Part shown: positions 3,834 through 37,659 of the stretch, in pieces
Layout: the number at the start of each line of letters is the position of its first letter
How positions within the stretch are numbered: position 1 is the first letter of the stretch
From: a virus
Lineage: Duplodnaviria > Heunggongvirae > Uroviricota > Caudoviricetes
Reading direction: 5' to 3' (one strand)
IMG/VR virus record: IMGVR_UViG_3300042922_000323
Location: 1-60,976 of that record
DNA: 60,976 nucleotides
Translations under genes and position numbers: made by a program
The notes under the pieces: generated by a model
The model's database searches: none
The model's input: the letters and a program-made list of their open reading frames with translations, nothing else
What the model was told of the DNA's origin: nothing

Positions 3834-4004
3834 ATGGCAAAGGTTGATTGCGCCTACTATGTCTGGTACAACGGAGACAAAATTCTCACAGACCGTTTCT
3901 GTGAGCAATGCCCTGAATATGACCGTTGTTCAGGGTTTCTCGAAGAAATTGAAATGAAACGGTTATTATTAGAGGATGGTTGGAAACTTCAACCTATCTC
4001 TTAA
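3834..4004 (+). CDS. small Cys-containing hypothetical protein
   Basis: MAKVDCAYY..FCEQCPEYDRC; RBS AGGAGG, start moved to 3834. Confidence 0.6.
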   Translation: MAKVDCAYYVWYNGDKILTDRFCEQCPEYDRCSGFLEEIEMKRLLLEDGWKLQPIS

Positions 4005-4030
4005 CTTTCAATGCCCCGTTCCGTATAAGT
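4001..4030 (+). promoter_or_regulatory. phage-specific (middle) promoter motif
   Basis: TTAACT-N15-CGTATAAGT. Confidence 0.8.
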
Positions 4031-4064
4031 ATTACGTAAGACAGAGAGGAGTTAACTACGAATC

Positions 4065-4093
4065 TTGACATCTTTCACGATGCCATGTATTAT
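4065..4093 (+). promoter_or_regulatory. SigA-type promoter
   Basis: TTGACA-N17-TATTAT. Confidence 0.65.
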
Positions 4094-4118
4094 TTTAAAT
4101 ACAGAACGGGGGTATAAT

Positions 4119-4532
4119 ATGCAATATTTACCACTCTTTGTCTACGGAACACTTAGACGGGGTTTCGGAAATTATAATAACTACCTTAGAGGTAAGGTTG
4201 CTGATATTGTTCCAGGCACAATAAAAGGAGAAATGTTCGACGTAGGGGCTTTCCCTGCTGTGGTTTGTGGAGAATACACAGTTGTCGGAGAACTGATGTA
4301 TATTGATCTCGCTGACTATGTGGACACTATGAAAAACTGTGATATACTTGAAGGTTATAACCCTGATGCCGACTTCAATATGTATGAACGGCAGATTATA
4401 GAGGTGAACACAGAAGATGGTATAAAACACGCATGGGTCTACATTTGGGAAATGACCCCTCCAAGTAACTATCGAAAGGTAGCAAATGGAGACTGGGCAG
4501 CATACTACCGTAATAGACAGTATGTTGGTTAG
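4119..4532 (+). CDS. gamma-glutamylcyclotransferase (GGCT/AIG2-like)
   Basis: LFVYGTLRRG, V.GELM, D.LEGY, MYER, AWVY motifs. Confidence 0.9.
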   Translation: MQYLPLFVYGTLRRGFGNYNNYLRGKVADIVPGTIKGEMFDVGAFPAVVCGEYTVVGELMYIDLADYVDTMKNCDILEGYNPDADFNMYERQIIEVNTEDGIKHAWVYIWEMTPPSNYRKVANGDWAAYYRNRQYVG

Positions 4533-4564
4533 ATATATGTGTGGGAGACTATGGAGGATGAAAT

Positions 4565-4831
4565 ATGTATACTGAAAAACAAGTCCAAGCTGTCGCACAT
4601 GAACTCCGAGACAGATTTATTAAGCTAAGTGTTAAGGACTATGAGATAGTAATTACCCTGCTATCAATGGAGAAGGCGGGTAAAATCACAGCAGACAATA
4701 TAGCACAAATTTTACTTTACGTCTACTTTGGAAACAAAGGCGGAGTGCTAAAAGCATTGGAGAGAGCAAAACCGCTAGTAAGTGACGCTCTAATTGATGC
4801 GGTTATAGCCGAAGTCAAGGGTAAAGATTGA
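4565..4831 (+). CDS. hypothetical protein
   Basis: 88 aa, RBS GGAGG. Confidence 0.65.
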   Translation: MYTEKQVQAVAHELRDRFIKLSVKDYEIVITLLSMEKAGKITADNIAQILLYVYFGNKGGVLKALERAKPLVSDALIDAVIAEVKGKD

Positions 4832-4934
4832 GAAGAGAAGAGCTGAGACTAGATGAACTTTATGGGTGAACCCACGTTCAAAGCACCTTAACGGCGATTA
4901 AGAATATCTATTACCATTTAAGGAGGTATGATGA

Positions 4935-6797
4935 TTGGTAAACGCCGAAAAAGTTGTCACACCCAATGGGAAACAGTGGATTAAGGTTAGCCTGACCCCA
5001 CACCCCATTGTAATTGACGCTATGAGCAAAGTTAAGGGTGCTTTGTTTAACACCAAGACCAATTTTTGGGCTGTACCATATGAGTATGTCAACGATTTTG
5101 TTAGCAAGATGGCTGACTACCTTATTGTATGGAAAGGTGAAGACGAACCGCTGATTTACACACAAGGGATTACGGAAGATGATATTCCCTCCTCCCCTGT
5201 AGTGCCAGGTTACACTGTCCAATATGACAGTGAAGGTAATATCACAGGTTCAACAGGTTTTAAGACCACCCCGTGGGGCGAGTTCCAGGTCAAGGGCTTT
5301 AACTTGATGGTTAGTAGAGACTTCTTAATCCTAGCTGATGATGCGGGTCTTGGAAAGAGTTGGCAGGTTGCCAATGCAATGGAAGCAAAAAAGAGACTAG
5401 GAGCTGTTAAGCGAGGTGTTGTAGTATGCAAAGCTTCACTGCTATTTAACTGGCGTGATGAAATACATATGCATACCCACCAAAAGGCTGTTGTAGTCGC
5501 AGGTTCTCAAACACAACGAAATGCCGCATATAATCAACTGACTTACTCAGATGATTGGACGTTTATTGTTGTGTCCTATGAAACTTTCCGTTCTGACATA
5601 AATAACTTCCAACTACTTGACAATATGAAACCGCTAGATTTTTGTATTCTGGACGAAGCACATAAGATAAAGAACCCGCAGAGCAAGATAGGGGCTTATA
5701 TCCACAGAATACCTTTTAGGTGCAGATACGTTCTTACAGCTACACCGTTGCCTAATAGTCCCCTTGAATCGTACAATTATTTGTACTGGGGCAATGTAAT
5801 ACAGTCCAACTGGTGGAGTTTTAGGAACAGATATGCTATTATGGGCGGGTACAACAAAAGAGAGATTATAGCCTACCAGAACATTAGAGAGCTACGCTCT
5901 TGGATTCAATACAACATGCTTAGACGACTCAAAAAGGACAAGCTTAAAGAGTTGCCTGATGTTGCTTTCAAGAGAGTAACAATACCCATGTCGGCTAAAC
6001 AAGCTTATTATTATAAGGCTGTTAAGCAGGAGATTATGGAAGACTTGAAAGACACTTCACTTGAACGTGTTCCGACTGCTCTTACTAAGTTGCTGAGACT
6101 ACAACAGGTTACTGACTCACCTGAGTTAATCGGTGTTGAGGATGGAAAGCCCGCCAAGATTACAGCATTAGAAGAAATGTTGGAAAACATAATAGATGAA
6201 AGTGGAAATAAGGTTATAGTGTTCTCTAGGTTTAGGGGAATGGTTGAACTTATTACAAAGAAATTTGAGAAGTACAACCCCGCAATTATTCATGGTGATG
6301 TAGATGCTAACGGTATGTCTATTCTATCGGCTTCAAAGGTACTGCGAGACCGATTGGGTGCTGATAAATGGGCACTCCTTACTCAGGAAGAGCGAGAGAA
6401 GTTACTAGAAGAAGCAATGACTTCCGAGAGACAGCGGGAGGTCTACAAATTCCAAAATGATGACACATGTAAACTCTTTATTGGGTGTACCCCTGCATGT
6501 AGAGAAGGACTTACACTAACCGCCGCCACCCACGTAATCTTTTTAGATTGCGAGTGGTCGCCCGCTTATGTGGAACAAGCTTACAGCCGTGCCCATCGTA
6601 TTGGTCAAAAAGACGCTGTAACTGTGTATTACTTGGTATGCGAAAATACCATAGATGAATATGTTCAAGATGTCCTTGAAAGAAAGGACGAAATGGCTCA
6701 AACAATGCTTGATAATGGTGTAAAAGCCTTTGGAGAGCAGAGAGCTAGAAATTTAATAGCACAGATGATTGGTATGGCATTGGAGGAGGTCGCATAG
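4935..6797 (+). CDS. SNF2-family (SF2) helicase/ATPase
   Basis: LADDAGLGKS (I), LDEAHKIKN (II), LTATP (III), QAYSRAHRIGQ (VI). Confidence 0.95.
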   Translation: MVNAEKVVTPNGKQWIKVSLTPHPIVIDAMSKVKGALFNTKTNFWAVPYEYVNDFVSKMADYLIVWKGEDEPLIYTQGITEDDIPSSPVVPGYTVQYDSEGNITGSTGFKTTPWGEFQVKGFNLMVSRDFLILADDAGLGKSWQVANAMEAKKRLGAVKRGVVVCKASLLFNWRDEIHMHTHQKAVVVAGSQTQRNAAYNQLTYSDDWTFIVVSYETFRSDINNFQLLDNMKPLDFCILDEAHKIKNPQSKIGAYIHRIPFRCRYVLTATPLPNSPLESYNYLYWGNVIQSNWWSFRNRYAIMGGYNKREIIAYQNIRELRSWIQYNMLRRLKKDKLKELPDVAFKRVTIPMSAKQAYYYKAVKQEIMEDLKDTSLERVPTALTKLLRLQQVTDSPELIGVEDGKPAKITALEEMLENIIDESGNKVIVFSRFRGMVELITKKFEKYNPAIIHGDVDANGMSILSASKVLRDRLGADKWALLTQEEREKLLEEAMTSERQREVYKFQNDDTCKLFIGCTPACREGLTLTAATHVIFLDCEWSPAYVEQAYSRAHRIGQKDAVTVYYLVCENTIDEYVQDVLERKDEMAQTMLDNGVKAFGEQRARNLIAQMIGMALEEVA

Positions 6798-6808
6798 ACC
6801 TCCTTTTT
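6784..6808 (+). terminator. intrinsic terminator
   Basis: AGGAGGTC-GCATA-GACCTCCT then TTTT. Confidence 0.7.
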
Positions 6809-6896
6809 AATGCTATCAGGAGGTGGAATAGTATTAAGATATTAAATGAGATATGGGAGCACATGCCAAAAGAGCACAAAGGGGGAAATAACACTA

Positions 6897-7334
6897 ATGC
6901 AATGGAATAAAATGACACGAGACCACCAACACATAAGACACCTTGGGGGTAGAACTTTTGAGGTAATTGATATTCAACAAGGACTAACTCGTAATAATGA
7001 CGAAGTGTATTTCTTGACGGATATTCAATATGACCTTGATAGCTACTCCACAGACTGTCTATTCGACTACGTCAGACTTTTCGGGTATTCTTCACTGGAA
7101 GATTTAAAGGAACAGCACCACGACGACCCTGACATGTACATTGTGGAAGCTATAGCAACAGTTACAGCAAGCTTTAATAGGGACTCTGACCCTGGTTTTG
7201 ACTCCATTGATGAAGCCGTAGACCACATGAGCAGAAGATGGTTGGGTAAAGCTAAGAAGATAAAACGTGAGACAACACTCTCAGATATGTTTTCTTCTTC
7301 GGTACAACCATCTTGGATGGTTGAATCCGATTAA
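6897..7334 (+). CDS. hypothetical protein
   Basis: RBS AGGGGG before ATG 6897. Confidence 0.65.
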   Translation: MQWNKMTRDHQHIRHLGGRTFEVIDIQQGLTRNNDEVYFLTDIQYDLDSYSTDCLFDYVRLFGYSSLEDLKEQHHDDPDMYIVEAIATVTASFNRDSDPGFDSIDEAVDHMSRRWLGKAKKIKRETTLSDMFSSSVQPSWMVESD

Positions 7335-7338
7335 TAAT

Positions 7339-7368
7339 TTAACTATTGGTTAATCACTTCGTATAAGT
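7339..7368 (+). promoter_or_regulatory. phage-specific (middle) promoter motif
   Basis: TTAACT-N15-CGTATAAGT. Confidence 0.8.
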
Positions 7369-7389
7369 ATATCGGAAGGGGTGATTAAC

Positions 7390-7833
7390 ATGAGTTTAGC
7401 GGATTACGCAAACAACAAAGAAGTAGTTAAAGCCATAGATGTTTTCGACGAGACAAAGGATATTGACAAAGAACTCGTTGAACAGTACTACGAGATTAAC
7501 GAGAGGAAGAAGGCTGACGAGAAATGGTTAAAAGCAAACAAACCTGCTATCGAGAAAGCTCTCGATCTCCTTAACAGGGACAAACTAGATGTGGGCAGTC
7601 TACGTGTGTCTGTAGCAGTACCTGATACCTCCCATTTTGATATGGACAAAGTGCTTGAATACCTTATAACCAGTGATGTTGAATGTACAAAAGTGGTTGT
7701 AGATGAACAGGCACTTGAAAAAGCCCTTGAAGATGGGCTTATTGATATTGATAAGTTGAAAGAAGTTGCATGGGTTGAGTCAAAGGGTACTCCTAGATTA
7801 ACTATAAACAAGGTGAAGTCTAGTGAGATTTAA
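7390..7833 (+). CDS. hypothetical protein (N-terminal coiled coil)
   Basis: RBS GGAAGGG; first gene after the motif. Confidence 0.7.
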   Translation: MSLADYANNKEVVKAIDVFDETKDIDKELVEQYYEINERKKADEKWLKANKPAIEKALDLLNRDKLDVGSLRVSVAVPDTSHFDMDKVLEYLITSDVECTKVVVDEQALEKALEDGLIDIDKLKEVAWVESKGTPRLTINKVKSSEI

Positions 7834-8116
7834 TATTGGTGACTGGGTGGTTATCCACCCTCGTTACTCCCTTAGATTTGCCCTACGTCTTGGGAGGATA
7901 ATTGATATTGCTGAGTCAGACGATGCTCTGCCATTTAAAATAGCTTTTCATAAGGAAGGTAGTTTGTACGGCTTTTCTTATCAAGAGTTAATAAGTAAAA
8001 CAGAATTTGAACGTGAAGTTATAAAGCCTGTTTCCTGTTACTATTGTGGTAAGGATATAACAGGGCAGTTTTCACTCTACTGTGAAGAGTGTGAATATCC
8101 TATTGAGGGGGAATAG
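7823..8116 (+). CDS. hypothetical protein, SH3/KOW-like N-part and CxxC pairs
   Basis: FNIGDWVVI..LGRII; CYYC..CEEC. Confidence 0.6.
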   Translation: MRFNIGDWVVIHPRYSLRFALRLGRIIDIAESDDALPFKIAFHKEGSLYGFSYQELISKTEFEREVIKPVSCYYCGKDITGQFSLYCEECEYPIEGE

Positions 8117-8117
8117 T

Positions 8118-8387
8118 ATGCCATACGAGAGTGAAAGAGCTAGGAGAGATCGCACCACAGTCGATGAACAGCTTAAAATTGCTTATGAATATTTACTAGC
8201 CTGTATAATGGCAAATGGCGGTTCTATTACTATTAGTGATTTGACAATGAGAAAACTATTGCGTGGAAACGTGCAAATTTGTGCAGAAGAAGACGTATAT
8301 AGTCATTCCACTCGATTGTTTTTAACAGGGCACGAAGGTATAAAAGCAGAGGAGAACTCGTATGAGAGACAAATACTCAACGAATAG
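8118..8387 (+). CDS. hypothetical protein
   Basis: RBS GAGGGGG. Confidence 0.6.
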   Translation: MPYESERARRDRTTVDEQLKIAYEYLLACIMANGGSITISDLTMRKLLRGNVQICAEEDVYSHSTRLFLTGHEGIKAEENSYERQILNE

Positions 8388-8556
8388 TCGTGGTACTCCT
8401 GACTCTATACTGATTAAGAAATACATGGATAACAAAATGCGTCGAGACCTGATTGACCCTAAGATTGAGGACGGCACAGCCACCGATGCAGAACGAAAAG
8501 AATATCGTGAATTAGTCCACGAACAACTTGCACTATCAGAAAAGATAGTCCAATAA
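8362..8556 (+). CDS. hypothetical protein
   Basis: 64 aa, RBS GAGGAG. Confidence 0.5.
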   Translation: MRDKYSTNSRGTPDSILIKKYMDNKMRRDLIDPKIEDGTATDAERKEYRELVHEQLALSEKIVQ

Positions 8557-8572
8557 TAAGGGGGAAACCGTA

Positions 8573-9172
8573 TTGCTATACACATTCATTGATTTTGAGA
8601 CCACGGGTTTAGACCACGAAAGAGACCAGATAATTGAAGTTGGGATGGTCAAGTCAGACCTTACTGACGAGAACGTGTTCATGAAACAATTCTTCGTTAA
8701 ACTCGAAGATGGAAGAACATTGTCTGACTTCATTCAGCAACACACTGGACTTTCAGACTCTGACCTGATTGGCGGTCTGAGTAATAAAGAAGCAGAACAA
8801 GAAATTAGGGAGTTTATTAATGGCACTACCATTGTAGCTCACAACGCTTCATTTGACCTTGGATTTATTAAAAATATTGAAGTACCCAGGTTCTACTGTA
8901 CTCGCTCGATATGTAAGGTAATCGAGCCTGACAAAAAGGCGAACCTTGAATTTATTTGTAAAAGGTATGACATACCTCTCGATAGAGAAAAGGGTCACAG
9001 GGCTGTTGATGATGCCTTTGCGTGTATGAAAGTATTCGACCAATACAGACGCATGTTAGGAGGATATAACGGATTACGAATGTTTATGAACAAAATGGTC
9101 GGAAGTCCCGATAGACCTCTAACGTACATTCCAAGCAACGCCACAGTTCTTAACTTCTCACCCACAACATAA
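8573..9172 (+). CDS. DEDDh 3'-5' exonuclease (DNA pol III epsilon-like)
   Basis: FIDFETTGL, AHNASFD, HRAVDDA. Confidence 0.92.
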   Translation: MLYTFIDFETTGLDHERDQIIEVGMVKSDLTDENVFMKQFFVKLEDGRTLSDFIQQHTGLSDSDLIGGLSNKEAEQEIREFINGTTIVAHNASFDLGFIKNIEVPRFYCTRSICKVIEPDKKANLEFICKRYDIPLDREKGHRAVDDAFACMKVFDQYRRMLGGYNGLRMFMNKMVGSPDRPLTYIPSNATVLNFSPTT

Positions 9173-9243
9173 TAACCCCGCCCTGCGGCGGGTAGGCTTT
9201 ACGTAAATCTTTGCATCATTCTGACCTATAAGGAGGGATAGAG

Positions 9244-9456
9244 ATGGCAAAAGTAAAGGAGATTTACGTAGAAGCTTCGTTCACAAAAAACCTTGGTAAC
9301 TACCAAAGTTTCAAGCCTACCGCAGGTGTTACTATAACACTTGAACCAGGTGATGATGAAGCAGAAGTATACAAAAAAGCATGGGATTTAGTAGGAGACC
9401 AAGTTGAAGAGCAATTGAAATTGTTCGAGGAAGACCTGAGAGCCACTAAAAGGTAG
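9244..9456 (+). CDS. conserved phage hypothetical protein
   Basis: SFTKNLGNYQSFK motif typical of Firmicute phage proteins; RBS GGAGG. Confidence 0.7.
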   Translation: MAKVKEIYVEASFTKNLGNYQSFKPTAGVTITLEPGDDEAEVYKKAWDLVGDQVEEQLKLFEEDLRATKR

Positions 9457-9464
9457 GTGATAAT

Positions 9465-9773
9465 ATGTCTACAGATGTCGGTTCATTCTACATGAAGGAT
9501 GACCCAAAGATTGCCCACCAAGTTGCAAAACTTGTAAGTGATGAAATGGTCAAAATAGGATTTGGTGAAAGTATTAAATTCAGAATACGCCTAGAGACCA
9601 CGGTAGAAGTCCGTGAACGAATATTTTTCATGGACTTAGACAGGAATTTATTCATTGAATTGGAAGCTTGGATTAAGGATAACACATTTAACAAAGAGAA
9701 CGAAGTAATGAAGATTACAGTATTTAAAGAAGGTGTAATACCTAATCCTAAAGCTTTTGCAGGAGTCCAATAA
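9465..9773 (+). CDS. hypothetical protein
   Basis: 102 aa, RBS AGGTG. Confidence 0.65.
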   Translation: MSTDVGSFYMKDDPKIAHQVAKLVSDEMVKIGFGESIKFRIRLETTVEVRERIFFMDLDRNLFIELEAWIKDNTFNKENEVMKITVFKEGVIPNPKAFAGVQ

Positions 9774-9790
9774 TTTGGACTCCTGTTTTG
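9760..9790 (+). terminator. intrinsic terminator
   Basis: CAGGAGTCCAA-TAAT-TTGGACTCCTG then TTTT. Confidence 0.8.
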
Positions 9791-9807
9791 TATTACAGTG
9801 TATATAC

Positions 9808-9836
9808 TTGACGCAAGTTTATAATACTTGTATGTT
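9808..9836 (+). promoter_or_regulatory. possible SigA-type promoter
   Basis: TTGACG-N17-TATGTT; an alternative TATAAT at 9820-9825 makes the register ambiguous. Confidence 0.45.
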
Positions 9837-9850
9837 AGGAGGTTAGTGTG

Positions 9851-9973
9851 GTGAGTAAAGTTGATGAAGAACGTATGCGTGCGGTTCTTAGAGATTTGGA
9901 TTGTCAAAGGTTGTCAGTAGATAGAGCTTTCGCAATAATACGAAACTTATTAGAAGACAATGAGGAGGATTAG
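9851..9973 (+). CDS. 40-aa hypothetical protein (not in ORF track)
   Basis: MSKVDEERMRAVLRDLDCQRLSVDRAFAIIRNLLEDNEED; RBS AGGAGG. Confidence 0.55.
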   Translation: MSKVDEERMRAVLRDLDCQRLSVDRAFAIIRNLLEDNEED

Positions 9974-9979
9974 CTGATT

Positions 9980-10219
9980 ATGATAGTACGGTTAGGTGAT
10001 AAGGAATTTGAAGTAAGCAACGAAAAACTCGAAACAACTATGAAGATACAGAAATCACAATTCAATGACATTATAGTACATCATAGAAGTACAAACAATC
10101 TGCAGGGACTTATTTTCACACTATTTTGCATGAAGCAACTATCCGAGGGTATAATCGAGGACATGCTCGCAGAAATAGGTGTAGATAAGATGGGAGAAAT
10201 AGTAACAAAAACTAATTAA
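9980..10219 (+). CDS. hypothetical protein
   Basis: 79 aa, RBS GAGGAGG. Confidence 0.6.
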   Translation: MIVRLGDKEFEVSNEKLETTMKIQKSQFNDIIVHHRSTNNLQGLIFTLFCMKQLSEGIIEDMLAEIGVDKMGEIVTKTN

Positions 10220-10244
10220 TTTGATAATTATAGGAGGTATAATT

Positions 10245-11004: not shown

Positions 11005-11007
11005 CAT

Positions 11008-11894: not shown

Positions 11895-11927
11895 CCCCGC
11901 CACTTTTTATTATTAGGAGGAATACTG

Positions 11928-12302: not shown

Positions 12303-12304
12303 AT

Positions 12305-13082: not shown

Positions 13083-13171
13083 AATAAAGCAAATAACTCC
13101 ACTAAATTATGTGAAAAATATTTTTAAAAACATTTTTAAATGATAAAACAGTTTTCTACCTCTATATTTCG

Positions 13172-13217: not shown

Positions 13218-13232
13218 AAAGAGGACAAAACA

Positions 13233-14153: not shown

Positions 14154-14681
14154 TTAACCTGCTACATTACTATCGTCCTTTGGTGCACCTTCAACTGTAC
14201 CGCCTTCATCTTCAATAATCTTTTTCTGTCTTCTTCTAAGGACTGGTAATAACCAACTTAGTTCATCATGCCCTGCATCTAACAAATTCTCTACACAGCT
14301 TTGTGCTTCTCTTAAAAACATTACTGAGTAGGCTAATGTTGATAGGAATACAGCCGCCCCTGCTACTGGTGCTACCCTCACGGATAAGCCACACAAAATC
14401 ATAAGTACTAAAAAGCTAATTAACTTTTTCCTAGTTCCTCTATAAAAATTATCAGAACTAATACTACCTGCCGCTATTGCTTTCTTTATTGAGCCATGTG
14501 GTTTACGTAGAGCATAATACTTGGTTAGAATATCAAGTATCATAGCCCCGCCTAATCCTATTGCGGCGGTATAATACGCATCACTGGGGAATAAAATGTA
14601 ACTAATAACTGACCATAGTAAGGCGAGAAATGGTTTCATTCCCGAGCATACTTTGCCCAAATACTCTAAAATCTCATTCAT
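14154..14681 (-). CDS. holin, toxin secretion/phage lysis holin family
   Basis: TM helices, LDILTK, G.RKKL, EAQSCVEN. Confidence 0.8.
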   Translation of the reverse strand: MNEILEYLGKVCSGMKPFLALLWSVISYILFPSDAYYTAAIGLGGAMILDILTKYYALRKPHGSIKKAIAAGSISSDNFYRGTRKKLISFLVLMILCGLSVRVAPVAGAAVFLSTLAYSVMFLREAQSCVENLLDAGHDELSWLLPVLRRRQKKIIEDEGGTVEGAPKDDSNVAG

Positions 14682-14714: not shown

Positions 14715-14724
14715 TAGAATAGAC
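14715..14724 (-). promoter_or_regulatory. candidate late promoter motif GTCTATTCTA
   Basis: 34 nt before holin start; identical 10-mer before starts at 49243 and 53604. Confidence 0.5.
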
Positions 14725-14758: not shown

Positions 14759-15571
14759 TTATACATCTGTGTACTTATCAATTAATTTAGCTATCTTCTT
14801 AATAATTCGGCTTACCCTCATTTGTGAGATGTTGTATTCCCTGGCGGTCTGTGTCTGTGAATTACCTTCCATCTGAGAGTTTAGTACATTAACCTCAGTG
14901 TCGGTCAACTTAGCCCTTATAGAATCTATTATTGAATCTACATACACCTTATCAACCACATCTATTTCAACATTTTCATCAGCGTGTAATAAATCCATAA
15001 GACAGGTGTCTGGTACATATCGCTGTTTCTCAACTAGTGGGTATGTTACCTTCCCCTCTAATGACTTTACAGGTTGTCCAATCTGTAGCACCTTTGTAAT
15101 CTTTTCTTCCTTCTCGTCAAGCAGCATTGCTAAATCTTCAACAGAAGGCATATATCCGAAATCGTTCTCGACTTTTCTAATATCCATTAGAAGTGAGTGA
15201 GCCGTTCTTGTAAGTCGAATTATATTCGCTGTGTCCCTCAGAAAACATCTAATTTCTCTCACAATAGCAGTAACTGCAAAGGAAGAGAACTTTATACCTC
15301 TTGTAGTATCGAAGGCTTTAATTGCCTTTATATAACCCATACGTCCCAGTTGTAATATATCTTCTTTTTCAAGACCGTTGTTGTCAGCTATTGTTTCGGG
15401 TTTTCCAATGTACTTATGAACGGAGTGCCAAATCAAATTCTCGTTAACTAATAGAACATCGCCCAAATAAGCGGGGTCTTCTTTACAGCGTTCAATGTTA
15501 TCCATTCGGTACATAGAGTAGTAGGTTTTGTCTTTACTGAGGTTTTCCTTTATGTGTTTTGGGAAATCCAT
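14759..15571 (-). CDS. SigB/F/G-like RNA polymerase sigma factor
   Basis: NENLIW..., EDILQLG.MG.IKA...FD..RG.KFSSFA...I..EIR.FLRD, SQM.VSRI. Confidence 0.92.
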   Translation of the reverse strand: MDFPKHIKENLSKDKTYYSMYRMDNIERCKEDPAYLGDVLLVNENLIWHSVHKYIGKPETIADNNGLEKEDILQLGRMGYIKAIKAFDTTRGIKFSSFAVTAIVREIRCFLRDTANIIRLTRTAHSLLMDIRKVENDFGYMPSVEDLAMLLDEKEEKITKVLQIGQPVKSLEGKVTYPLVEKQRYVPDTCLMDLLHADENVEIDVVDKVYVDSIIDSIRAKLTDTEVNVLNSQMEGNSQTQTAREYNISQMRVSRIIKKIAKLIDKYTDV

Positions 15572-15723: not shown

Positions 15724-16011
15724 TTACCTCTTTCCCTGTATTCTATCCTTCAAAGGCTTAGTCATTCTTGCAACTACTGTAGTAACTGCGGGAATGGTCA
15801 TAGGCTCTTTTGTTATTGGGTTCTTACCATCTTTAGCATCACGGTGTTTCACGAAGAAGTTAAAGAAGTTATTAACCTTCACATCATCACCTGCTACTAA
15901 GTAGCCTGTAATCAATCCAAGTATATCTTCTAATCTCTTCTCGGCTTCAACCTTGGTAATACCTTCTTGTACAGCATAGTCAGCAATAATCTCGTTCTTA
16001 AATTTTGTCAT
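15724..16011 (-). CDS. HU/IHF-family DNA-binding protein
   Basis: MTK.., G.F..K.R.A..GKNP.T.E.MTIPA. Confidence 0.92.
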   Translation of the reverse strand: MTKFKNEIIADYAVQEGITKVEAEKRLEDILGLITGYLVAGDDVKVNNFFNFFVKHRDAKDGKNPITKEPMTIPAVTTVVARMTKPLKDRIQGKR

Positions 16012-18663: not shown

Positions 18664-19136
18664 CCTTTCGTTTTTGTTTTATTAGCTCTTACAGTGTACT
18701 TATACGTTGAGGTCTTACCAGAGTTAAATGAACTTTTAACTTTTTCTAAAACATTTAATGTTGCATCGTAATCACTCATGTCTGAGTTCGGGTGGTTATT
18801 TAAGTAGTAGTTCTTGTAAGCGGTTACCACGATATTGTTATTAATATCAACTACTACACAAGTTACTCTATCCCTAAATGGAACTCTACCTCTCAGAAGT
18901 ACTCTACTTTCTTCGCCATTAATTAAATGGTACTCGATAATATTCCCATCATTAATGGTCTGATTAACTTCCTCGACAGTTATCCTTCTCTCTTTCATTC
19001 TTTGAAGACTGTGTTGTGTCACTTGGAATTTACCTCGAATCAACATCTTCAAGACATTCTTTTCCTCGGCAGTCATCTGAGTATGGTGCTTTCTTATTCC
19101 CCTAACTTCATCTATTGCCTTTAGCACTTCCGCCAT
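18660..19136 (-). CDS. DUF4258-like (RelE/BrnT-fold) putative RNase
   Basis: TQHSLQRM.ER.I....V...I..G.IIE...RVLLRG...VVV...VVTAY; start moved to 19136. Confidence 0.75.
   Translation of the reverse strand: MAEVLKAIDEVRGIRKHHTQMTAEEKNVLKMLIRGKFQVTQHSLQRMKERRITVEEVNQTINDGNIIEYHLINGEESRVLLRGRVPFRDRVTCVVVDINNNIVVTAYKNYYLNNHPNSDMSDYDATLNVLEKVKSSFNSGKTSTYKYTVRANKTKTKG
18698..18727 (-). promoter_or_regulatory. phage-specific (middle) promoter motif
   Basis: TTAACT-N15-CGTATAAGT, inside the 3' end of the DUF4258 gene. Confidence 0.75.
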
Positions 19137-19157: not shown

Positions 19158-19187
19158 ACTTGTACGTGGAGGTGTATTCTCAGTTAA
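19158..19187 (-). promoter_or_regulatory. middle promoter motif variant
   Basis: TTAACT-N15-CGTACAAGT. Confidence 0.7.
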
Positions 19188-19188
19188 A

Positions 19189-19217
19189 TAAAAAAGGCAA
19201 CTTTTTTCAAAGTTGCC
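19189..19217 (-). terminator. terminator after nrdD
   Basis: GGCAACTT-loop-AAGTTGCC then T-run on minus strand. Confidence 0.7.
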
Positions 19218-19229
19218 CAAACTTGCTTA

Positions 19230-27612: not shown

Positions 27613-27642
27613 ACTTATACGCAACCGTGTATCCCCAGTTAA
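27613..27642 (-). promoter_or_regulatory. phage-specific (middle) promoter motif
   Basis: TTAACT-N15-CGTATAAGT. Confidence 0.8.
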
Positions 27643-30787: not shown

Positions 30788-30804
30788 AATACCACCCCCA
30801 TGAA

Positions 30805-30834
30805 ACTTATACGTTTCAACCTGTTATGAGTTAA
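30805..30834 (-). promoter_or_regulatory. phage-specific (middle) promoter motif
   Basis: TTAACT-N15-CGTATAAGT. Confidence 0.8.
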
Positions 30835-30865
30835 AAAGTCCCCCAAGTATCACAAGGGGGACTTT
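30835..30865 (-). terminator. terminator after ssb
   Basis: AAAGTCCCCC-loop-GGGGGACTTT. Confidence 0.8.
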
Positions 30866-30886
30866 AGGTGTACTGCTAATTAAAGC

Positions 30887-31432
30887 TTAGAACGGTGGCT
30901 CGTCATCTTCGTTATTACTAGTTCCACCAGTAATTCCTGAGTTCATAAGAGCCAAAATAGACTCTTTAGTTGAAGGTGTTACCATTGCTTCAATATCAGG
31001 AAGTTCAACTTCTTCAAAGTCAAATGCTTCAATATCTCTAGCAAAGAACTCATATGTAGTATCGAGTTTCTCACCACTACGAACAATTTTGAAATCTCTC
31101 TTTGTTACATCACCATACTCTTCAACCTGAGTAAGTAGTCTCTTAAAGGTCTTCTTAGAAGCCTTAAAAATCTTGACCTTTCCATCTGCTCTATCGAGCA
31201 CTGGAATGTATGCTTTAAATGAAGGGTACTTACCTGCTGCACATATAGGGCAGTTGTTTTTACCTGGGCAACATACTGTCTTCCAATTTCCTGCGAACTG
31301 TTCCGTGTGTTCATAAGCCGCCATCACTTCATCAATGGGCACAAGTATTCTTACCACAACACTTTTGTTGTTCTCCAATTTCAGAAAGTTTGCACTGTTT
31401 TTAAGTGCTTCGGTCATTGCGTTAAAAGCCAT
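30887..31432 (-). CDS. phage single-stranded DNA-binding protein (gp32-like)
   Basis: FLKL..VRIL, C.CPIC, acidic aromatic tail DDEPPF. Confidence 0.8.
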   Translation of the reverse strand: MAFNAMTEALKNSANFLKLENNKSVVVRILVPIDEVMAAYEHTEQFAGNWKTVCCPGKNNCPICAAGKYPSFKAYIPVLDRADGKVKIFKASKKTFKRLLTQVEEYGDVTKRDFKIVRSGEKLDTTYEFFARDIEAFDFEEVELPDIEAMVTPSTKESILALMNSGITGGTSNNEDDEPPF

Positions 31433-31489
31433 AGTCTCATTCTCCTTTTAATTTGTTATTCGTATTTGGGTTATCTTCCCTTACAAAGT

Positions 31490-31598
31490 ACTTATACGTG
31501 CAAACCAGTCCCCAGTTAAATGCTTTTTAAAATGTTTTTCGACAAATTCTGCACAGTATTTTCATAGTACTTATACGCAACAAAAAAGCCAGAGTTAA
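31490..31598 (-). promoter_or_regulatory. tandem middle promoters with a Spo0A box between
   Basis: Motif at 31490-31519 and 31569-31598; TGTCGAA (minus) at 31538-31544. Confidence 0.75.
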
Positions 31599-31626
31599 GT
31601 GCACTCTGGCTTGTTATATGTAAAAT

Positions 31627-32199
31627 TTAAGCGTCTTCATATTTCTTAATAACACCTTTCCATAACTGACTAATGCGAGCCTTGGTTAGTCCAAGCATTG
31701 TAGCTATTTCGGTAAACTCATACCCCGCACAACGGAGTTTGAATATCTGTTTCTCCCTGTCATTGAGACCAATGTTCTCCATAAAATCTATCTCATACTC
31801 AGAACAACCATAATCTCCGTCAACGCTTTTTAATACAGCATTGCTTTTATGGGTACTGCCACTATCATTACTAATATCTTCGGGAGATTCAACTAGCTCA
31901 ACAGCTAAACAAAGTGGCATGTTGGTCTTTGCTTTCCTAAGACAATCCCTTATTCTATTATTAATAACATTCTCAAAGAATGTACTGGCTTTAGCCCTTG
32001 AACTGTCATATGCATCTACTGCTCTATATACAGAGAGTAGTACTTCTTGAACTACGTCTTCCTTTTCCATACCTACGAAGTCTGTAGCATGTATTTTAAC
32101 CTCGCACATTTCCTTTGCTTTAGTTAAAAATTTGTCCATATCACCGACTGCAAGTAATTCATCATAACCCATCGACACAGTATAACTCACAAAATACAC
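31627..32199 (-). CDS. ECF/SigH-like RNA polymerase sigma factor
   Basis: EDVVQEV.L..Y.A...YD....STF...I.NRI.D.LR; L.DREK.IF.L...GY...EIA.MLG. Confidence 0.85.
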   Translation of the reverse strand: MYFVSYTVSMGYDELLAVGDMDKFLTKAKEMCEVKIHATDFVGMEKEDVVQEVLLSVYRAVDAYDSSRAKASTFFENVINNRIRDCLRKAKTNMPLCLAVELVESPEDISNDSGSTHKSNAVLKSVDGDYGCSEYEIDFMENIGLNDREKQIFKLRCAGYEFTEIATMLGLTKARISQLWKGVIKKYEDA

Positions 32200-32209
32200 T
32201 CTCCTTTAA

Positions 32210-33277
32210 TTATTTAATATTATATAAAAATTCCTTATTAAGCTCACTTCTATATTCTTCAAATGTTATCTTTTCAACTTGTTTTAGTAAGCCCGCTTTT
32301 AATAAGTCATTTGCATCTTTGAACTGGATTTCTTCCTCGTCCAGTGTGTCAATACCATACCTGGCACATGGATACTTAATTACATTCACCCTTATTGGAG
32401 AATGTGTAGTAATCATGTTGTATGCTTGTAGGTTTGCTCTAACACCCCAGTAATCATTATCTAGGAACAGGTTAACAGTCTTTATATCTGCTTTCATAAG
32501 TTCTTGTACTTGCTCTTTAAATACTATCCTTCCAAGGATAGCCCCCGCAGGTATTCCTCCTTGGTAGCAAGCCATTGTGTCTGTTTCTGACTCATTTAAT
32601 GCAATCTCGGTAATATGTATGTTTGCCTGTTTAATATAGTATAGACCGTATACTATATCTTTCTTATCAAGGTTCTTCTCATTTAAAAAACCTTTTCTAC
32701 CGACAAACCTTCTTTTAACAAATCTTATTCTGCCATCAGAGGTTCTTATAGGAATTACCATAGATTGAGTTTGTTCATCAAACCCTATCTCGTACTTATC
32801 AAGTACCCTATCCTTAAATCCTCTGCTGTACATATAAGGGTGTCTCTTTCCTATATATTGTGCTATTTCTTCTTCTAAGTGGGAGCACCTTCTATCTTGA
32901 CTCTTCTTATCCAGTATAGCTTCAAGGTCAAGCTTGGGTCTCTGCTCTGCTGATAAAACTACGAAGTTTTTAAGGAGGAATTGCTCTCCCACAACTTCAT
33001 TTTTAAACCCACAGCAATGGGCTACTAATTGGGGCAAATTTCCAGTTTTTCCACAACTGAAACATTGGAATGTGTAAGGATAACTTGTCAGTATTCCAAA
33101 AGAAGGAGTACTCTCTTCTTCATAAGGACAACAACACATTAAGTTATCTCCGCTTGCTTTTACTTTGGTAAGAGCCGTTGTATTGCATTTGGCTTGACCA
33201 GACTCTTCATAATAAAGTCTTAACTCTTGTATTACTTCATCGATGTCTAAATATATTGTTGATAATATTGTGCCCAT
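32210..33277 (-). CDS. dnaG: DNA primase (CHC2 Zn finger + TOPRIM)
   Basis: CCPY...PSF...CFSCG, ESETD, FLDND. Confidence 0.9.
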   Translation of the reverse strand: MGTILSTIYLDIDEVIQELRLYYEESGQAKCNTTALTKVKASGDNLMCCCPYEEESTPSFGILTSYPYTFQCFSCGKTGNLPQLVAHCCGFKNEVVGEQFLLKNFVVLSAEQRPKLDLEAILDKKSQDRRCSHLEEEIAQYIGKRHPYMYSRGFKDRVLDKYEIGFDEQTQSMVIPIRTSDGRIRFVKRRFVGRKGFLNEKNLDKKDIVYGLYYIKQANIHITEIALNESETDTMACYQGGIPAGAILGRIVFKEQVQELMKADIKTVNLFLDNDYWGVRANLQAYNMITTHSPIRVNVIKYPCARYGIDTLDEEEIQFKDANDLLKAGLLKQVEKITFEEYRSELNKEFLYNIK

Positions 33278-33298
33278 TTTTTTCCACCTCTCGCCATT

Positions 33299-33344
33299 AT
33301 ATTACAACTTTCGACAAATAGTGTCAACCCTTTTTCGACAAATT
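33299..33344 (-). promoter_or_regulatory. SigA-type promoter flanked by two Spo0A boxes
   Basis: TTGACA 33323-33328, TAATAAT -10 region ~33299-33305; ATTTGTCGAAA at 33310-33320 and 33334-33344. Confidence 0.75.
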
Positions 33345-33490
33345 ATGGAATATTTTTTCTAAAGATTGGAAATATAGGAATATGGGAAGCCCCAAACGCA
33401 GTGGGCTTCCCTGTAGACAAGTAATAAGAAATTTTTTTTATCTTTCTCACCTACTAGAATACCCTGCCGTAATAGGTAAACCAATGTCAG

Positions 33491-34051
33491 TTATTGGTTT
33501 ATCAAATAGCGGTAAGCATCTAGCTGTCTTTGGTATTCTTCTGTCTTATGAAACCCGCACGACTTATACTCAAAACAGTGACCCCTGTATATGCAGTCAG
33601 GTACACTTACGCTGTATAATTCGGGTTGTTCTTCCTTTATACTTTCAAGTACTTCCTTCCATGCTTCCCGTGTCTCAGGTGAAGCCAGAAAGCATAATCT
33701 CTTCCTTGAAATATTTATAAATGCCTGCGGGTTCGCTGCAAACTCATGTTCAACAGGAGCACCCTGTGGTATTACATCTCTATTCTCACCCGTTCGGTCA
33801 GTTCTCTGAGTTCGCACCCAATGGATAATACCAAGCCAGTGTCTGACAAAATGAACACTTACCCAATAAGGTATTTCATACCATTTACACTTTAAATTTA
33901 ACTGCCTTATAGGAGAATGTTCACATAATAACATTCTTCTTTTCCACTCAGAGGAAGGTTCACCTTCCCCTGCTTCTTTATGTATAGTAGTTCTGGCAGA
34001 ATCAGCAACGTCCCGCCATGTTCCATTCATACCAAGAAATTTAACCCGCAT
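33491..34051 (-). CDS. thyX: flavin-dependent thymidylate synthase
   Basis: EHSPIR, H..RH..., TQR.DR, SRKRLC, C.YRG.C.E. Confidence 0.88.
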   Translation of the reverse strand: MRVKFLGMNGTWRDVADSARTTIHKEAGEGEPSSEWKRRMLLCEHSPIRQLNLKCKWYEIPYWVSVHFVRHWLGIIHWVRTQRTDRTGENRDVIPQGAPVEHEFAANPQAFINISRKRLCFLASPETREAWKEVLESIKEEQPELYSVSVPDCIYRGHCFEYKSCGFHKTEEYQRQLDAYRYLINQ

Positions 34052-34229
34052 TTACTTTAGCCCCCTTGTTTAAGAAGCTAAAAGCAATCATTTTCTTCCA
34101 TGACCCAACACCGTGCTGTTCAGTAACATACTTCTTAGCAATGTACATCAAGTCCTTATTATCAATAGCTTCTAATAAGGTTGTAAAAACATCGTCCCTG
34201 TCAAATGCATAAGTAATCCTATAGGTCAT
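34041..34229 (-). CDS. hypothetical protein
   Basis: 62 aa. Confidence 0.5.
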   Translation of the reverse strand: MTYRITYAFDRDDVFTTLLEAIDNKDLMYIAKKYVTEQHGVGSWKKMIAFSFLNKGAKVNAG

Positions 34230-34573
34230 AATAAATTTCCTCCGCTTATATTAAGTATGTACCTTGACATGTATGCTACAGGCTTGTCTGTCTTTTCAGC
34301 ATAGGCAATCTCACGTTTAGTGCTTTCGCCAATATAACCATCCTTATCAATAACAAATATACCATCTGAAAGGTCAATCTTTCTAAGGTGTAATTCGTCA
34401 AGCATTTCTTTTACAGAATCATCAATAGTTACTCCGTATTCACCATCAGCGTGACCAAACAATCCCACGCTAATAATTATGTGCCCCATCAATGTAAGCA
34501 ATTTCTGCCACTGCATAAACTCTTCTTTAAACTTAGTAGAACCACACAAGGTAACAACCTTTGGCTTATCCAT
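34226..34573 (-). CDS. Rossmann-like protein, nucleoside deoxyribosyltransferase-like (DUF4406-type)
   Basis: TLCGS.KF, H.RKIDLSD.IFVI...GYIGEST.REI.YA. Confidence 0.6.
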   Translation of the reverse strand: MDKPKVVTLCGSTKFKEEFMQWQKLLTLMGHIIISVGLFGHADGEYGVTIDDSVKEMLDELHLRKIDLSDGIFVIDKDGYIGESTKREIAYAEKTDKPVAYMSRYILNISGGNLL

Positions 34574-34585
34574 TATATTTCCCCC

Positions 34586-35839
34586 TTAAAATACCAGTGT
34601 CTCAGGGAAATTTTCTTCCCATACACCTGTGTCTAAATTAGCTTTCATAAATATATCTTGGTCTTTCTTTCCGCCCCTGTTCTTCTTTAGAGACATCTTG
34701 AAAGTGTCAGTAAGTAATCTCAGAGTCAGTACCCTTGTAGCTTTCTGAGCAGGGTTGTCAGACTCTTGTATATCAAACAGTTCAGGAGTAGCATTTGGGT
34801 CTTTCTTAGCTTCCTTCGCCGCATTTCTTCCCGCCTGTGCTATGAGCATCATAGGTGTTTGTGTATAAAGGTTGGTATCTCTAACACCATTGGTAACCCT
34901 GACTATTCTCTTACGAATGTCACTTTCGCTCGTACCATCGGACAGGTCATACAACTGGTCAATCACTATGAAACCAGGTCTCTCAGACTCTATGACTGCT
35001 CTTATATCCAATGGAGTAAATGGCTTACCCCCATTAGCTTCCTGAGAAAGGATTAGGAAACTTGTGTCCTTCTTCTTTAGCTCATTTAGATATTCAAGAT
35101 ACAGCTCATGGTCTGGTAACTTACCATCATTCAGTGCTCTGTTGGAGAAATGTGCTCTCAGTGTGTCCAAACGGAACGATACTTCTAACTCGGGCATTTC
35201 TGTGGTTATGTATATAACAGGAGCATTTACATTTGCTATCTGTAAAGCTCTCCATGCGTGGTATGCAAAATACCCGCCCACCATAGATTTACCTTCATTA
35301 GTTCTAGCCGCTAACAGTACAAGGTCATCGTTTCTCCATCCACCTGTTAAATCATCAAGGGTTCGTATACCTGTAGGTAACCCCCACAGTCCTGTGTGCC
35401 CATGACGTTTCATGTACTCTGTGTATCTGTCATCTGCGTTCTTAACCCAGTCATACCTTGACGTTTTACCTGTGAAGTTCTTTAGCATACCATCAAGGTC
35501 AGTCTTCATTTTCATCATGGCTTCAATGGTCTTGCCATCTGAAACCAATCCTGCGTTCTCCGTGAGCAGTGGTCTATACTCCATGTACGCCTTTTGCTCT
35601 TTTAACACATTAACTAAGTAGCTTATAGGTTCAAGACTAGTTAATGGTTGGAAATCATCAAACTCTAACGCTACGGTGTTCGATGTTGGTAACTGCCCGT
35701 GCTGTTTATGGAATCTATCAATCCATTCATACTCGTCTTTAAGGACTATGAAGTATGAATTGTCAATCCCATTTTTCATAAGGAAGCCGTAATCTTGCGA
35801 ATTTAACCAATGGTTAAGTAATTGTAATTCCTCTATCAA
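34586..35839 (-). CDS. dnaB: replicative DnaB-like helicase
   Basis: LPTG..LD..TGG, AARTNEGKS, ITTEM, IDQL, QAGR, IQESD. Confidence 0.92.
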   Translation of the reverse strand: MIEELQLLNHWLNSQDYGFLMKNGIDNSYFIVLKDEYEWIDRFHKQHGQLPTSNTVALEFDDFQPLTSLEPISYLVNVLKEQKAYMEYRPLLTENAGLVSDGKTIEAMMKMKTDLDGMLKNFTGKTSRYDWVKNADDRYTEYMKRHGHTGLWGLPTGIRTLDDLTGGWRNDDLVLLAARTNEGKSMVGGYFAYHAWRALQIANVNAPVIYITTEMPELEVSFRLDTLRAHFSNRALNDGKLPDHELYLEYLNELKKKDTSFLILSQEANGGKPFTPLDIRAVIESERPGFIVIDQLYDLSDGTSESDIRKRIVRVTNGVRDTNLYTQTPMMLIAQAGRNAAKEAKKDPNATPELFDIQESDNPAQKATRVLTLRLLTDTFKMSLKKNRGGKKDQDIFMKANLDTGVWEENFPETLVF

Positions 35840-36555
35840 GTTCTCAACTCCTTACTCCGCCTGTCTGAGCCGTTCACTTCTATCACCATACCATTGCTTA
35901 GCAGACGAGATACGTTTCGTTTCCCTAGATTACCCCCATCTGCTAAATCCTTTAGGCTCAGATTGGACGTAGTCACGGTGGATAATACGTTATTGAACCT
36001 ATGGTTGAGTAATAAGAATGTCTGTTCTCTTGCAAAGTCTGACATTGTTCCCGCACCTAAATCATCAAGCATCAGGAGTGGAACATTCATTATATTGTTG
36101 AAACGCTCTTGTGTTCCTGTATCATCTTCCAAGTATCTTAAATCATCAATCAACCTGGCATAGTCTACATACATTGCTAGTGGGTGCTCAAAGTCAAACC
36201 TTGTTCCGCATGTTCTATAAATGTAGTGGTTTACAAATAAAGCCGCCGCATGTGTCTTTCCTGTTCCAGTATTACTGCCCTGAAAGAATACATTCAGCCC
36301 ACCATCAACTTCTTCAACTATGTTGTCTAGCAATGGCTTTATCTTTTCAAACACTTCCCTGTTCTTATCATCTACTTTGTAGTTGTAAAGGTTTGCTTGG
36401 AGATACCTTTTGGGTATCTCCGAAAACGCAAGAGCCTTATACATTCTAGCGTGCATACGGCAAAAGGAACTGTCTGTCTTCTCCACCTCGCCTTTGTATC
36501 GTGGACAAAATGCTTGTGCTAGGCACTTTGTACATTCCTCATAAGGTGCTGTCAT
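35836..36555 (-). CDS. DnaC/IstB-like AAA+ helicase loader
   Basis: G.NTGTGKT, LMLDDLG, HRFNN.LST..TSN. Confidence 0.88.
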   Translation of the reverse strand: MTAPYEECTKCLAQAFCPRYKGEVEKTDSSFCRMHARMYKALAFSEIPKRYLQANLYNYKVDDKNREVFEKIKPLLDNIVEEVDGGLNVFFQGSNTGTGKTHAAALFVNHYIYRTCGTRFDFEHPLAMYVDYARLIDDLRYLEDDTGTQERFNNIMNVPLLMLDDLGAGTMSDFAREQTFLLLNHRFNNVLSTVTTSNLSLKDLADGGNLGKRNVSRLLSNGMVIEVNGSDRRSKELRT

Positions 36556-37607
36556 TACAATCCCCTCTTTCTTAAAAAGTTCATTAAATCATCATCTTCA
36601 TCACTCTGTACTGGTTCATCAGGTTCTTCCCCTTTATCATCAAACCTAGTATAGAACTTACCAGTTGTCATGAAAGCTGTAATGGAGTTCTGAACATAAG
36701 TTCCGCAGAATCCACTAACGTAGTGTTTGGAGAACGCTTCGCCATGCTCAAAATAAATATCCATCATTGCTTTCAGTAACTCGTTGTTTCCCCTTTTCTC
36801 AATCGCTACACTAAGAGAACGTAAATCCCACCGTTCAGTGAAGTAAGGTGTTTTATACTTAGCTACATATAACTGCTCAAAGTACTTCATAAAATAATGA
36901 CAGTTCCATGTAAGCACAGGGTCATTCAAGTCAACCTTCTTTTTCTTCGGCTTGCTTACCTTATCTACATCTGCAACCTTATCAACTTCTTGACTCTTGC
37001 TTGGCTTAACATTTAGCTGTCGTCTTGGTGGTTCAGCAGGTAATGGTTCTTCTACTAGTTCCTCAGATTCCATCTGTTCACTACTTGCAAAATCCGAAAA
37101 CCATTGAGCTAATGTAGTCATGTAATGTTCGGGCTTAGTACAGCTATTTAAAGACTTGTACAAATCCGTTTTTTCATACTCAGCTACAGCCCTGTAAAAT
37201 TCATCCACTTGCTCTGTCCCTACAGGTTTAAGTGAATGAACCATTTCTGAATGTCTCAGCATTGGTATCCTATGTAATTCAATTAAGTGGTAAGTGTCTA
37301 CCGAATTTGCTGACCCCTTCTCAATGATTATGAAACCCTTATCCACAAGCTCCTTTAAATAGTTAAGCAACGTCTGCCTACTACATCGGAGTTTCCCCCT
37401 AAGAGTAGCCTGACTTGGGTGACACTCTTGTTTCTCCCAAGCATAAGCTTTTAAGCAGGTGTATAATTGCTTTGCCCCTAATGAAAGGAACATACAATCT
37501 GTTACCTTATTAGGAATCATTGAAAAGCCCTTATTTTCACCGTAATGCATCATAAAGCTTTCTTGTTGGTCACAAAGTTCAACCCTAAATTCCCCCAATA
37601 GCATCAC
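36555..37607 (-). CDS. replication initiator with N-terminal winged HTH
   Basis: LS.GAK.LY..L..YA...CHPSQATL...L.EL..KGFI; directly upstream of dnaC/dnaB. Confidence 0.75.
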   Translation of the reverse strand: MMLLGEFRVELCDQQESFMMHYGENKGFSMIPNKVTDCMFLSLGAKQLYTCLKAYAWEKQECHPSQATLRGKLRCSRQTLLNYLKELVDKGFIIIEKGSANSVDTYHLIELHRIPMLRHSEMVHSLKPVGTEQVDEFYRAVAEYEKTDLYKSLNSCTKPEHYMTTLAQWFSDFASSEQMESEELVEEPLPAEPPRRQLNVKPSKSQEVDKVADVDKVSKPKKKKVDLNDPVLTWNCHYFMKYFEQLYVAKYKTPYFTERWDLRSLSVAIEKRGNNELLKAMMDIYFEHGEAFSKHYVSGFCGTYVQNSITAFMTTGKFYTRFDDKGEEPDEPVQSDEDDDLMNFLRKRGL

Positions 37608-37629
37608 TCCCGTTTTACTTTTTCAAGAG

Positions 37630-37659
37630 ACTTATACGCACGGTCACGTACACAGTTAA
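37630..37659 (-). promoter_or_regulatory. phage-specific (middle) promoter motif
   Basis: TTAACT-N15-CGTATAAGT. Confidence 0.8.

Follow-up and report, generated by a model that had tools for sequence, protein, structure and literature searches.

Transcription of Bacillus phage SPO1 follows a cascade in which gp28 serves the middle genes and gp33/gp34 serve the late genes, and TF1 is an HU-like protein. Here we analyzed a stretch of 60,976 nucleotides (the window), the first half of a 124,976-bp IMG/VR virus record (IMGVR_UViG_3300042922_000323) that is estimated to be complete. We focused on a repeated bipartite motif, TTAACT-N15-CGTA(T/C)AAGT, which a preliminary description had proposed as the promoter of a replication regulon recognized by a phage sigma factor resembling the extracytoplasmic function (ECF) class. 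The closest described system is a promoter-like motif found before the DNA-metabolism genes of Brevibacillus phage Jenst and of SecTim467, with 19 to 20 sites per genome; the motif is not in the host genome, and a phage sigma factor was proposed as its reader, with none named (Berg et al. 2016, PLoS One 11:e0156838; PMC4909266). Bacillus phage Basilisk was stated to share the Jenst motif (PMC4909266). Common to ECF promoters are AAC at -35 and CGT at -10; CGTA is selective for SigW and CGAC for SigX, and these promoters stick closely to their consensus (PMC5758882).

Judged by gene order and protein matches, the soil phage studied here is a distant relative of Jenst. The two share the order initiator, DnaC, DnaB, primase, small sigma factor, SSB-like protein, and PolA, with weak matches throughout (proteins 23 to 30% identical); protein matches for both sigma factors, the SSB-like protein, and an HU-like protein are weak but consistent. 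The motifs differ, however. From Jenst we recovered GCAACT-N16-CGACCATA followed by AGTGTAAGG, the core being a SigX-type CGAC, whereas the present phage uses TTAACT-N15-CGTATAAGT; no TTAACT...CGTATAAGT sites were found in Jenst. Jenst carries three sigma genes and this phage two, a small sigma gene and a SigF/G-like sigma gene, beyond which none was detectable in the genome. A scan of Basilisk found neither CGACCATA nor a matching dyad.

The motif of this phage is very probably a phage-specific promoter class, a reading well supported by where the sites lie, which way they point, their geometry, and their persistence in relatives. Nine exact matches were found in the window, where none are expected (0 in 100 dinucleotide-preserving shuffles), at exactly the coordinates and strands first described: 4001+, 7339+, 18727-, 19187- (a CGTAC variant), 27642-, 30834-, 31519-, 31598-, and 37659-. 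Allowing two mismatches in the window added one site only, within a gene and on the wrong strand. A scan of the full 124,976-bp genome, as the preliminary description had suggested, yielded 12 exact sites and no degenerate intergenic copies; the three beyond the window are 85132+, 89724-, and 107584+. CGTATAAGT is the most overrepresented 9- to 10-mer of the genome, and all 12 intergenic copies of CGTATAAGT or CGTACAAGT have TTAACT exactly 15 nucleotides (nt) upstream. Since no further intergenic sites were found when three mismatches and spacers of 14 to 17 were allowed across the genome, the promoter class has no weak members. Another top 9-mer, TAATAACAT, was located within genes and was discarded as a signal.

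Placement was equally regular. All 12 sites are co-oriented with the downstream gene, with 17 to 136 nt between the end of the motif and the start codon, and the claim that the motif always occupies the coding strand upstream of genes holds across the whole genome. Most sites are intergenic; one overlaps the 3' end of the preceding gene. No copy was found between 38.6 and 85 kb, in agreement with the initial impression that the structural module has none. The 15-bp spacing had been called invariant, which is true of this genome (12 of 12), but at some sites in close relatives it is 16. The nine putative middle promoters of the window, and the units they would head, are as follows.

4001 to 4030, plus strand: P4001, exact motif, before a GGACT-like gene, a small open reading frame (ORF), and an SNF2 helicase gene (4935 to 6797), the first and last matching Pfam GGACT and SNF2.
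7339 to 7368, plus strand: P7339, exact motif, before a Gam/Gp157-like gene, small ORFs, and an RNase_T exonuclease gene (8573 to 9172).
18698 to 18727, minus strand: P18727, exact motif, before genes for dUTPase, thymidylate kinase, an HU/IHF-like protein, and the SigF/G-like sigma factor.
19158 to 19187, minus strand: P19187, the CGTACAAGT variant, before a DUF4258 gene and directly after a terminator hairpin (19195 to 19218).
27613 to 27642, minus strand: P27642, before a long unit encoding guanylate kinase, an HD/YfbR-like nucleotidase, RecA, an NrdG-like activase, and NrdD.
30805 to 30834, minus strand: P30834, before the genes for PolA and a Cas4/PD-(D/E)XK nuclease, directly after a hairpin (30840 to 30858).
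31490 to 31519, minus strand: P31519, the proximal member of a tandem pair before the SSB gene (30887 to 31432), conserved in relatives.
31569 to 31598, minus strand: P31598, exact motif, the distal member of the same pair.
37630 to 37659, minus strand: P37659, before genes for an initiator, DnaC-like and DnaB-like proteins, small ORFs, and a weak ThyX-like gene, with primase and the small sigma factor reached by read-through.

The targets named in the preliminary description match by Pfam or PHROGs (the SSB gene, for example, matches phrog_14578 with an E value of 1.7e-20), but the ThyX assignment is weak (E value of 6e-4, below the cutoff). Beyond the window, one of the three sites heads an unknown gene, an HTH_17 (excisionase-like) gene, and a second tyrosine integrase gene; another heads a gene for a small FeThRed_B-like (redox-like) protein; and another heads an HNH endonuclease gene. 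The term "replication regulon" therefore fits most of the targets but not all, because the integrase unit, the small redox-like protein, and the HNH endonuclease are headed by the motif as well.

Information in the 12-site alignment sits mainly in two blocks, and the 15 spacer columns carry little. In addition, an invariant G, absent from the preliminary description, lies six bases past AGT, with a pyrimidine before it and purines after it, often as TGTAAG. The pyrimidine-G pair stands equally far from CG in Jenst and in the relatives G002, G004, and G005. This constant distance suits its reading as a start site, and the G is likely to mark the start of transcription. With the G taken as +1, TTAACT falls at -35 to -30 and TATAAG at -12 to -7, with an invariant CG before it. 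The -35 element would then be TTAACT, and the -10 element would lie within CGTATAAGT, where it can be read as CGTA of the ECF type or as CG followed by TATAAG. All 12 sites hold both TTAACT and CGTA, and AAC-N16-CGTA is an ECF -35/-10 signature; the initial assignment of CGTA to the SigW-type ECF core agrees with the literature (PMC5758882). Like SigW-type promoters of B. subtilis, the motif has AAC and CGTA with 16 bases between them and a near-invariant consensus. Unlike them, it has TTAACT where they have TGAAAC, its invariant -10 block is long and continues into TATAAGT, and its proposed reader is a phage protein in no ECF group with no anti-sigma partner seen.

The proposed reader and the host-type promoters near it are located as follows.

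31627 to 32199, minus strand: small, two-domain ECF-like sigma factor of 190 amino acids (Pfam Sigma70_r2 and r4, no r3), the proposed reader of the motif.
33327 to 33299, minus strand (element 33299 to 33344): sigma-A-type promoter TTGACA-N17-TAATAT, just before the primase and small sigma genes.
From 37683, plus strand (element pair 37630 to 37712): perfect sigma-A-type promoter TTGACA-N18-TATAAT, before an Xer-like integrase gene.

By Pfam, the small sigma factor consists of sigma-2 and sigma-4 domains only, with neither region 1.1 nor region 3. Its AlphaFold model has helical domains at residues 12 to 92 and 134 to 189, joined by a disordered linker of ~40 residues; a fold search with this model returned generic sigma matches only, and the loose placement of the two domains kept their TM-scores low. 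Among NCBIfam models, it passes only the general sigma-70 superfamily model, the next best being FliA/WhiG region 4, SigH, and SigE, and its best sequence match in the PDB is sigma-H (3MZY). The earlier label "ECF-like" therefore holds for the architecture (regions 2 and 4) but not for classification: the protein falls into none of the defined ECF groups, and the solved structure closest to it in sequence is a sigma-H.

Good sigma-A-type sites between genes are few in this genome. Within the window, read-through from P37659, located 5.4 kb upstream, is the sole route by which a middle-type promoter reaches the small sigma gene. In G002, G004, and Jenst, such a promoter immediately precedes the primase-sigma pair or the sigma gene. 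A terminator stands directly 3' of the small sigma gene in the window, where relatives carry an ORF of 48 to 66 amino acids of no known family. The -35 hexamer of P31598 lies within the loop and 3' arm of this terminator (31586 to 31612), whose T-run forms the promoter spacer, and the composite of hairpin and TTAACT is kept in the contigs L087, L089, and L090. Altogether, three motif sites directly follow terminator-like hairpins, and P18727 sits inside the 3' end of the DUF4258 gene.

Relatives were not reached by every search. The best PolA match among deposited phages is only 32% identical, and the phage has no close relative there; near-identity and protein searches of the phage collection with the replication block and with the small sigma factor as queries gave no match. 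No RNA run was found to contain the DNA of this phage. Scanning viral contigs for the exact motif returned 74 single matches only, at chance level, and a locus search with the lone small sigma protein as the query returned no relative, an alignment query being needed. Five complete relatives of 103 to 125 kb were compared for motifs, and a further 29 loci yielded the small sigma factor along with the promoters flanking it; most of these loci lie on Paenibacillus chromosomes, the others including one plasmid and single loci from Priestia and Brevibacillus. Many Paenibacillus genomes carry relatives of both sigma genes (loci L158 to L177, proteins P0036 to P0109), frequently on a contig or plasmid of 110 to 125 kb such as the 120,923-bp plasmid of Paenibacillus sp. 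S-38; further relatives come from Brevibacillus, Priestia, Solibacillus, and Cytobacillus. The SigF/G-like sigma factor is present in ~110 family members. The family seems to consist of large phages, temperate or plasmid-like, with a wide distribution, and the host of this phage is probably Paenibacillus.

The motif class was conserved in these relatives. Four metagenome contigs whose small sigma factor is 57 to 70% identical keep TTAACT-N15/16-CGTATAAGT at syntenic places, and the two that reach upstream of primase (L087 and L089) keep the TTGACA promoter as well. In an unbiased count of dyads (5-mer, spacer, 6-mer), the same bipartite class came first in G000, G002, G004, and Jenst and within the first 12 in G001 and G005. 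The count missed it in the AT-rich G003, whose sites were located by scanning for CGTATA directly. All relatives surveyed (about 30, mostly Paenibacillus prophages and plasmid-like elements) retain CGTATA as the -10 core, Jenst excepted. The -35 hexamer, by contrast, varies by lineage: TTAAC(T/A/C) or TAAACT, CTTAAAAA, CCTAAAAT, TTCAA, TGGATT, CTGAAAA, and GCAACT.

This variation follows the helix of region 4.2 in the small sigma factor. Where the helix reads (S/T)K(A/P/S)(R/N)(I/V/M)S(Q/I)(L/I)W, TTAAC or TAAAC is kept, and any other -35 hexamer always comes with another helix (about 15 lineages). A further reading, somewhat less likely than not, is co-diversification of the helix and the -35 hexamer around a fixed CGTATA, with at least seven hexamer types, among 100- to 125-kb Paenibacillus and Brevibacillus phages and plasmid-like prophages. 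If true, the sigma/promoter pairs would be mutually insulated, and co-resident elements would be unable to activate each other's replication genes. A one-residue rule, in which Lys or Arg at helix position 2 pairs with the C of AAC, was rejected: it fits seven genomes and fails in L173, which has Arg and yet TAAAAT.

The second sigma gene and the putative late motif are located as follows.

14759 to 15571, minus strand: SigF/G-like sigma factor of 270 amino acids with regions 2, 3, and 4, best matching SigB/F/G models; last gene of the P18727 unit.
14715 to 14724, minus strand: late-class motif GTCTATTCTA, before the holin gene (14154 to 14681).
49274 to 49283, 53642 to 53651, and 59645 to 59654, minus strand: further late-motif copies in the window; others lie at 72.8, 74.5, 80.1, 82.4, and 85.1 kb of the genome.

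The late motif, GTCTA(A/T/C)TCTA, has 10 copies in the genome against 1.2 expected, 8 of which are intergenic and on the coding strand. It has no conserved -35 block and stands 30 to 98 nt before holin, terminase-side, capsid, and tail genes. As GTCTAnnCTA, it is common to G000 through G004, which conserve the SigF/G-like sigma factor, and is lacking in G005 and Jenst, whose version of that factor is divergent; the late motif of Jenst is CTTATAATG. The SigF/G-like sigma factor is thus matched in its conservation by the late motif, which it likely reads (as GTCTAnTCTA). We found no promoter of its own for this gene in the window, and it lies behind a middle promoter both in this phage and in Jenst. 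Just upstream of it is a gene for an HU/IHF-family DNA-binding protein of 95 amino acids (15724 to 16011, minus strand), the counterpart of Jenst gp115.

Taking these comparisons together, we consider it probable that the 12 sites are the middle promoters of a ~125-kb Jenst-like phage and are paired with its small sigma factor. Host sigma-A polymerase would transcribe primase and the small sigma gene first, from TTGACA-N17-TAATAT. The small sigma factor would then steer the host core polymerase to the 12 motif promoters, turning on genes for replication, recombination, and nucleotide supply. The SigF/G-like sigma factor, made from the last gene of one motif unit, would finally read GTCTAnTCTA before the lysis and structural genes. 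This order is favored because only the small sigma factor can plausibly be made first by host polymerase and its helix changes where the -35 hexamer changes, and because the SigF/G-like genes lie in middle units and are conserved where the late motif is. We observed the sites themselves, where they lie, how they are kept, and the co-variation among relatives, and from these we infer the start site, the sigma-motif pairing, and the timing. The original nomination of the small sigma factor as reader gained indirect support in that it is the sole sigma gene with a host-type promoter, which relatives keep, and in that the -35 hexamer co-varies with region 4.2, but the pairing itself is a deduction. 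The proposed scheme resembles that of SPO1 in that host sigma A makes the first sigma factor, the middle class is distinct, the late factor is a middle gene, and an HU-like protein is encoded nearby, here as read from the genome alone. It differs in that the sigma factors are unrelated in sequence, the motifs are different, the first sigma factor is ECF-like and the second SigF/G-like, and the late motif has no -35 block.

Other readers of the motif were weighed against the small sigma factor. The SigF/G-like sigma factor might read the motif promoters, leaving the small sigma factor to serve late genes or another role. Forespore sigma factors use the -10 element CATAnTA, which CGTATAA loosely resembles, and L173, L174, and L176 each pair one change in the SigF/G-like helix core with a changed -35 hexamer. 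However, the SigF/G-like gene has no host-type promoter and lies inside a motif-driven unit here and in Jenst, and its product therefore could not start the class. Moreover, its helix core (SQMRVSRI) is unchanged throughout G000 to G004, including G001 and G003 with their different -35 hexamers, and its conservation is tracked by the late motif rather than the middle motif. Given the single changes in L173, L174, and L176, clean discrimination between the two sigma factors rests mainly on G001 and G003. We consider the SigF/G-like factor an unlikely reader.

A second alternative retains host sigma A, reading TATAAG as its -10 element while a phage protein replaces -35 recognition, as in the appropriation of host polymerase by T4 MotA/AsiA. 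TTAACT-N17-TATAAG does match the sigma-A geometry exactly, and the predicted +1 is a G. At position -7, however, the motif has an invariant G where sigma A has a strong preference for T. The CG before the hexamer is also invariant, the true sigma-A-type promoters of this genome look different (for example, TTGACA-N18-TATAAT at 37683), and the -35 hexamer co-varies with the helix of the small sigma factor, a combination that makes appropriation of sigma A quite improbable.

The promoters might also be read by a host SigW-type ECF sigma factor induced by envelope stress during infection. AAC-N16-CGTA is the SigW signature, and the relative G005 has TGAAAA-N15-CGTATA. Yet relatives within a single host genus, Paenibacillus, use quite different -35 hexamers, which one shared host sigma factor could not all read; the Jenst motif has no copy in the host genome (Berg et al., PMC4909266); and the phage retains a sigma gene of its own in fixed synteny. 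We regard a host reader as very improbable. Finally, that the motif is a regulator binding site or a replication or recombination site is scarcely credible given its bipartite form with a fixed-length spacer of free sequence, its strict co-orientation with genes, its sites just after terminators, its -35/-10/+1 geometry, and the family-wide pattern.

Several points weigh against pairing the motif with the small sigma factor. With the conserved G as the start, CGTA lies 1 to 3 nt farther upstream than is usual for ECF promoters. By the family models, the predicted small sigma factor falls outside every defined ECF group, sigma-H being its nearest solved relative, and no anti-sigma gene is evident beside it. 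L173, L174, and L176, which have the most deviant -35 hexamers, each also carry one substitution in the SigF/G-like helix core. Because the lineages are related, the co-variation counts few independent events. Lastly, a divergent sigma factor or RNA polymerase-binding factor beyond Pfam detection could be encoded among the many unannotated early genes.

Phage sigma cascades (SPO1), ECF-type promoters, and a motif in this family (2016) were already known, and no new principle is proposed. This phage contributes a further motif of that kind with a sequence of its own, to which the assignment of a sigma factor and the family-wide variety of -35 hexamers are modest additions. Together, they give a readable transcription map for an unannotated metagenomic phage, with early, middle, and late classes, unit boundaries, and two sigma genes placed, and they offer a sigma assignment for the motif left without a reader in the 2016 Jenst paper. 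The family also supplies many natural pairs of a small sigma factor and a probable -35 hexamer, potentially useful as orthogonal expression parts and in studies of DNA reading by region 4.

Additional elements lie near these promoters. A gap of 23 bp separates P37659 (minus strand) from the sigma-A-type promoter of the integrase gene (plus strand), and the two face away from each other. ATTTGTCGAAA, which resembles a Spo0A box, has three intergenic copies, all around the small sigma gene (31538 to 31548, 33310 to 33320, and 33334 to 33344, minus strand); two flank the -35 element of the TTGACA-N17-TAATAT promoter, and one lies between the tandem SSB promoters. The same layout of TTGACA promoter and boxes was found in L087, L089, and G004, the boxes being TTGTCGAA in L087 and L089. 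In the Paenibacillus prophage loci L159 to L177, a variant TTTACC/TTTACG-N15-CGTATATAG occurs ~300 to 450 nt upstream of primase and differs from the TTAAC...CGTATAGAG sites elsewhere in those loci; it may serve in autoregulation as a weaker site or as one tuned separately.

A sigma-A-like TTGACA-N17-TATTAT (window 4065 to 4121) comes after P4001 and before the ATG (4119) at which the GGACT-like gene is likely to start. Lying downstream of P4001, it means that this gene may own two promoters; the listed TTG start (4065) of the gene is doubtful. Elsewhere in the genome, an inverted pair GGGAATA(C/A)GTATAAGTACCCAC, which has the GTATAAGTA word without a TTAACT partner, is intergenic at 111097 to 111230, its two members ~85 bp apart.

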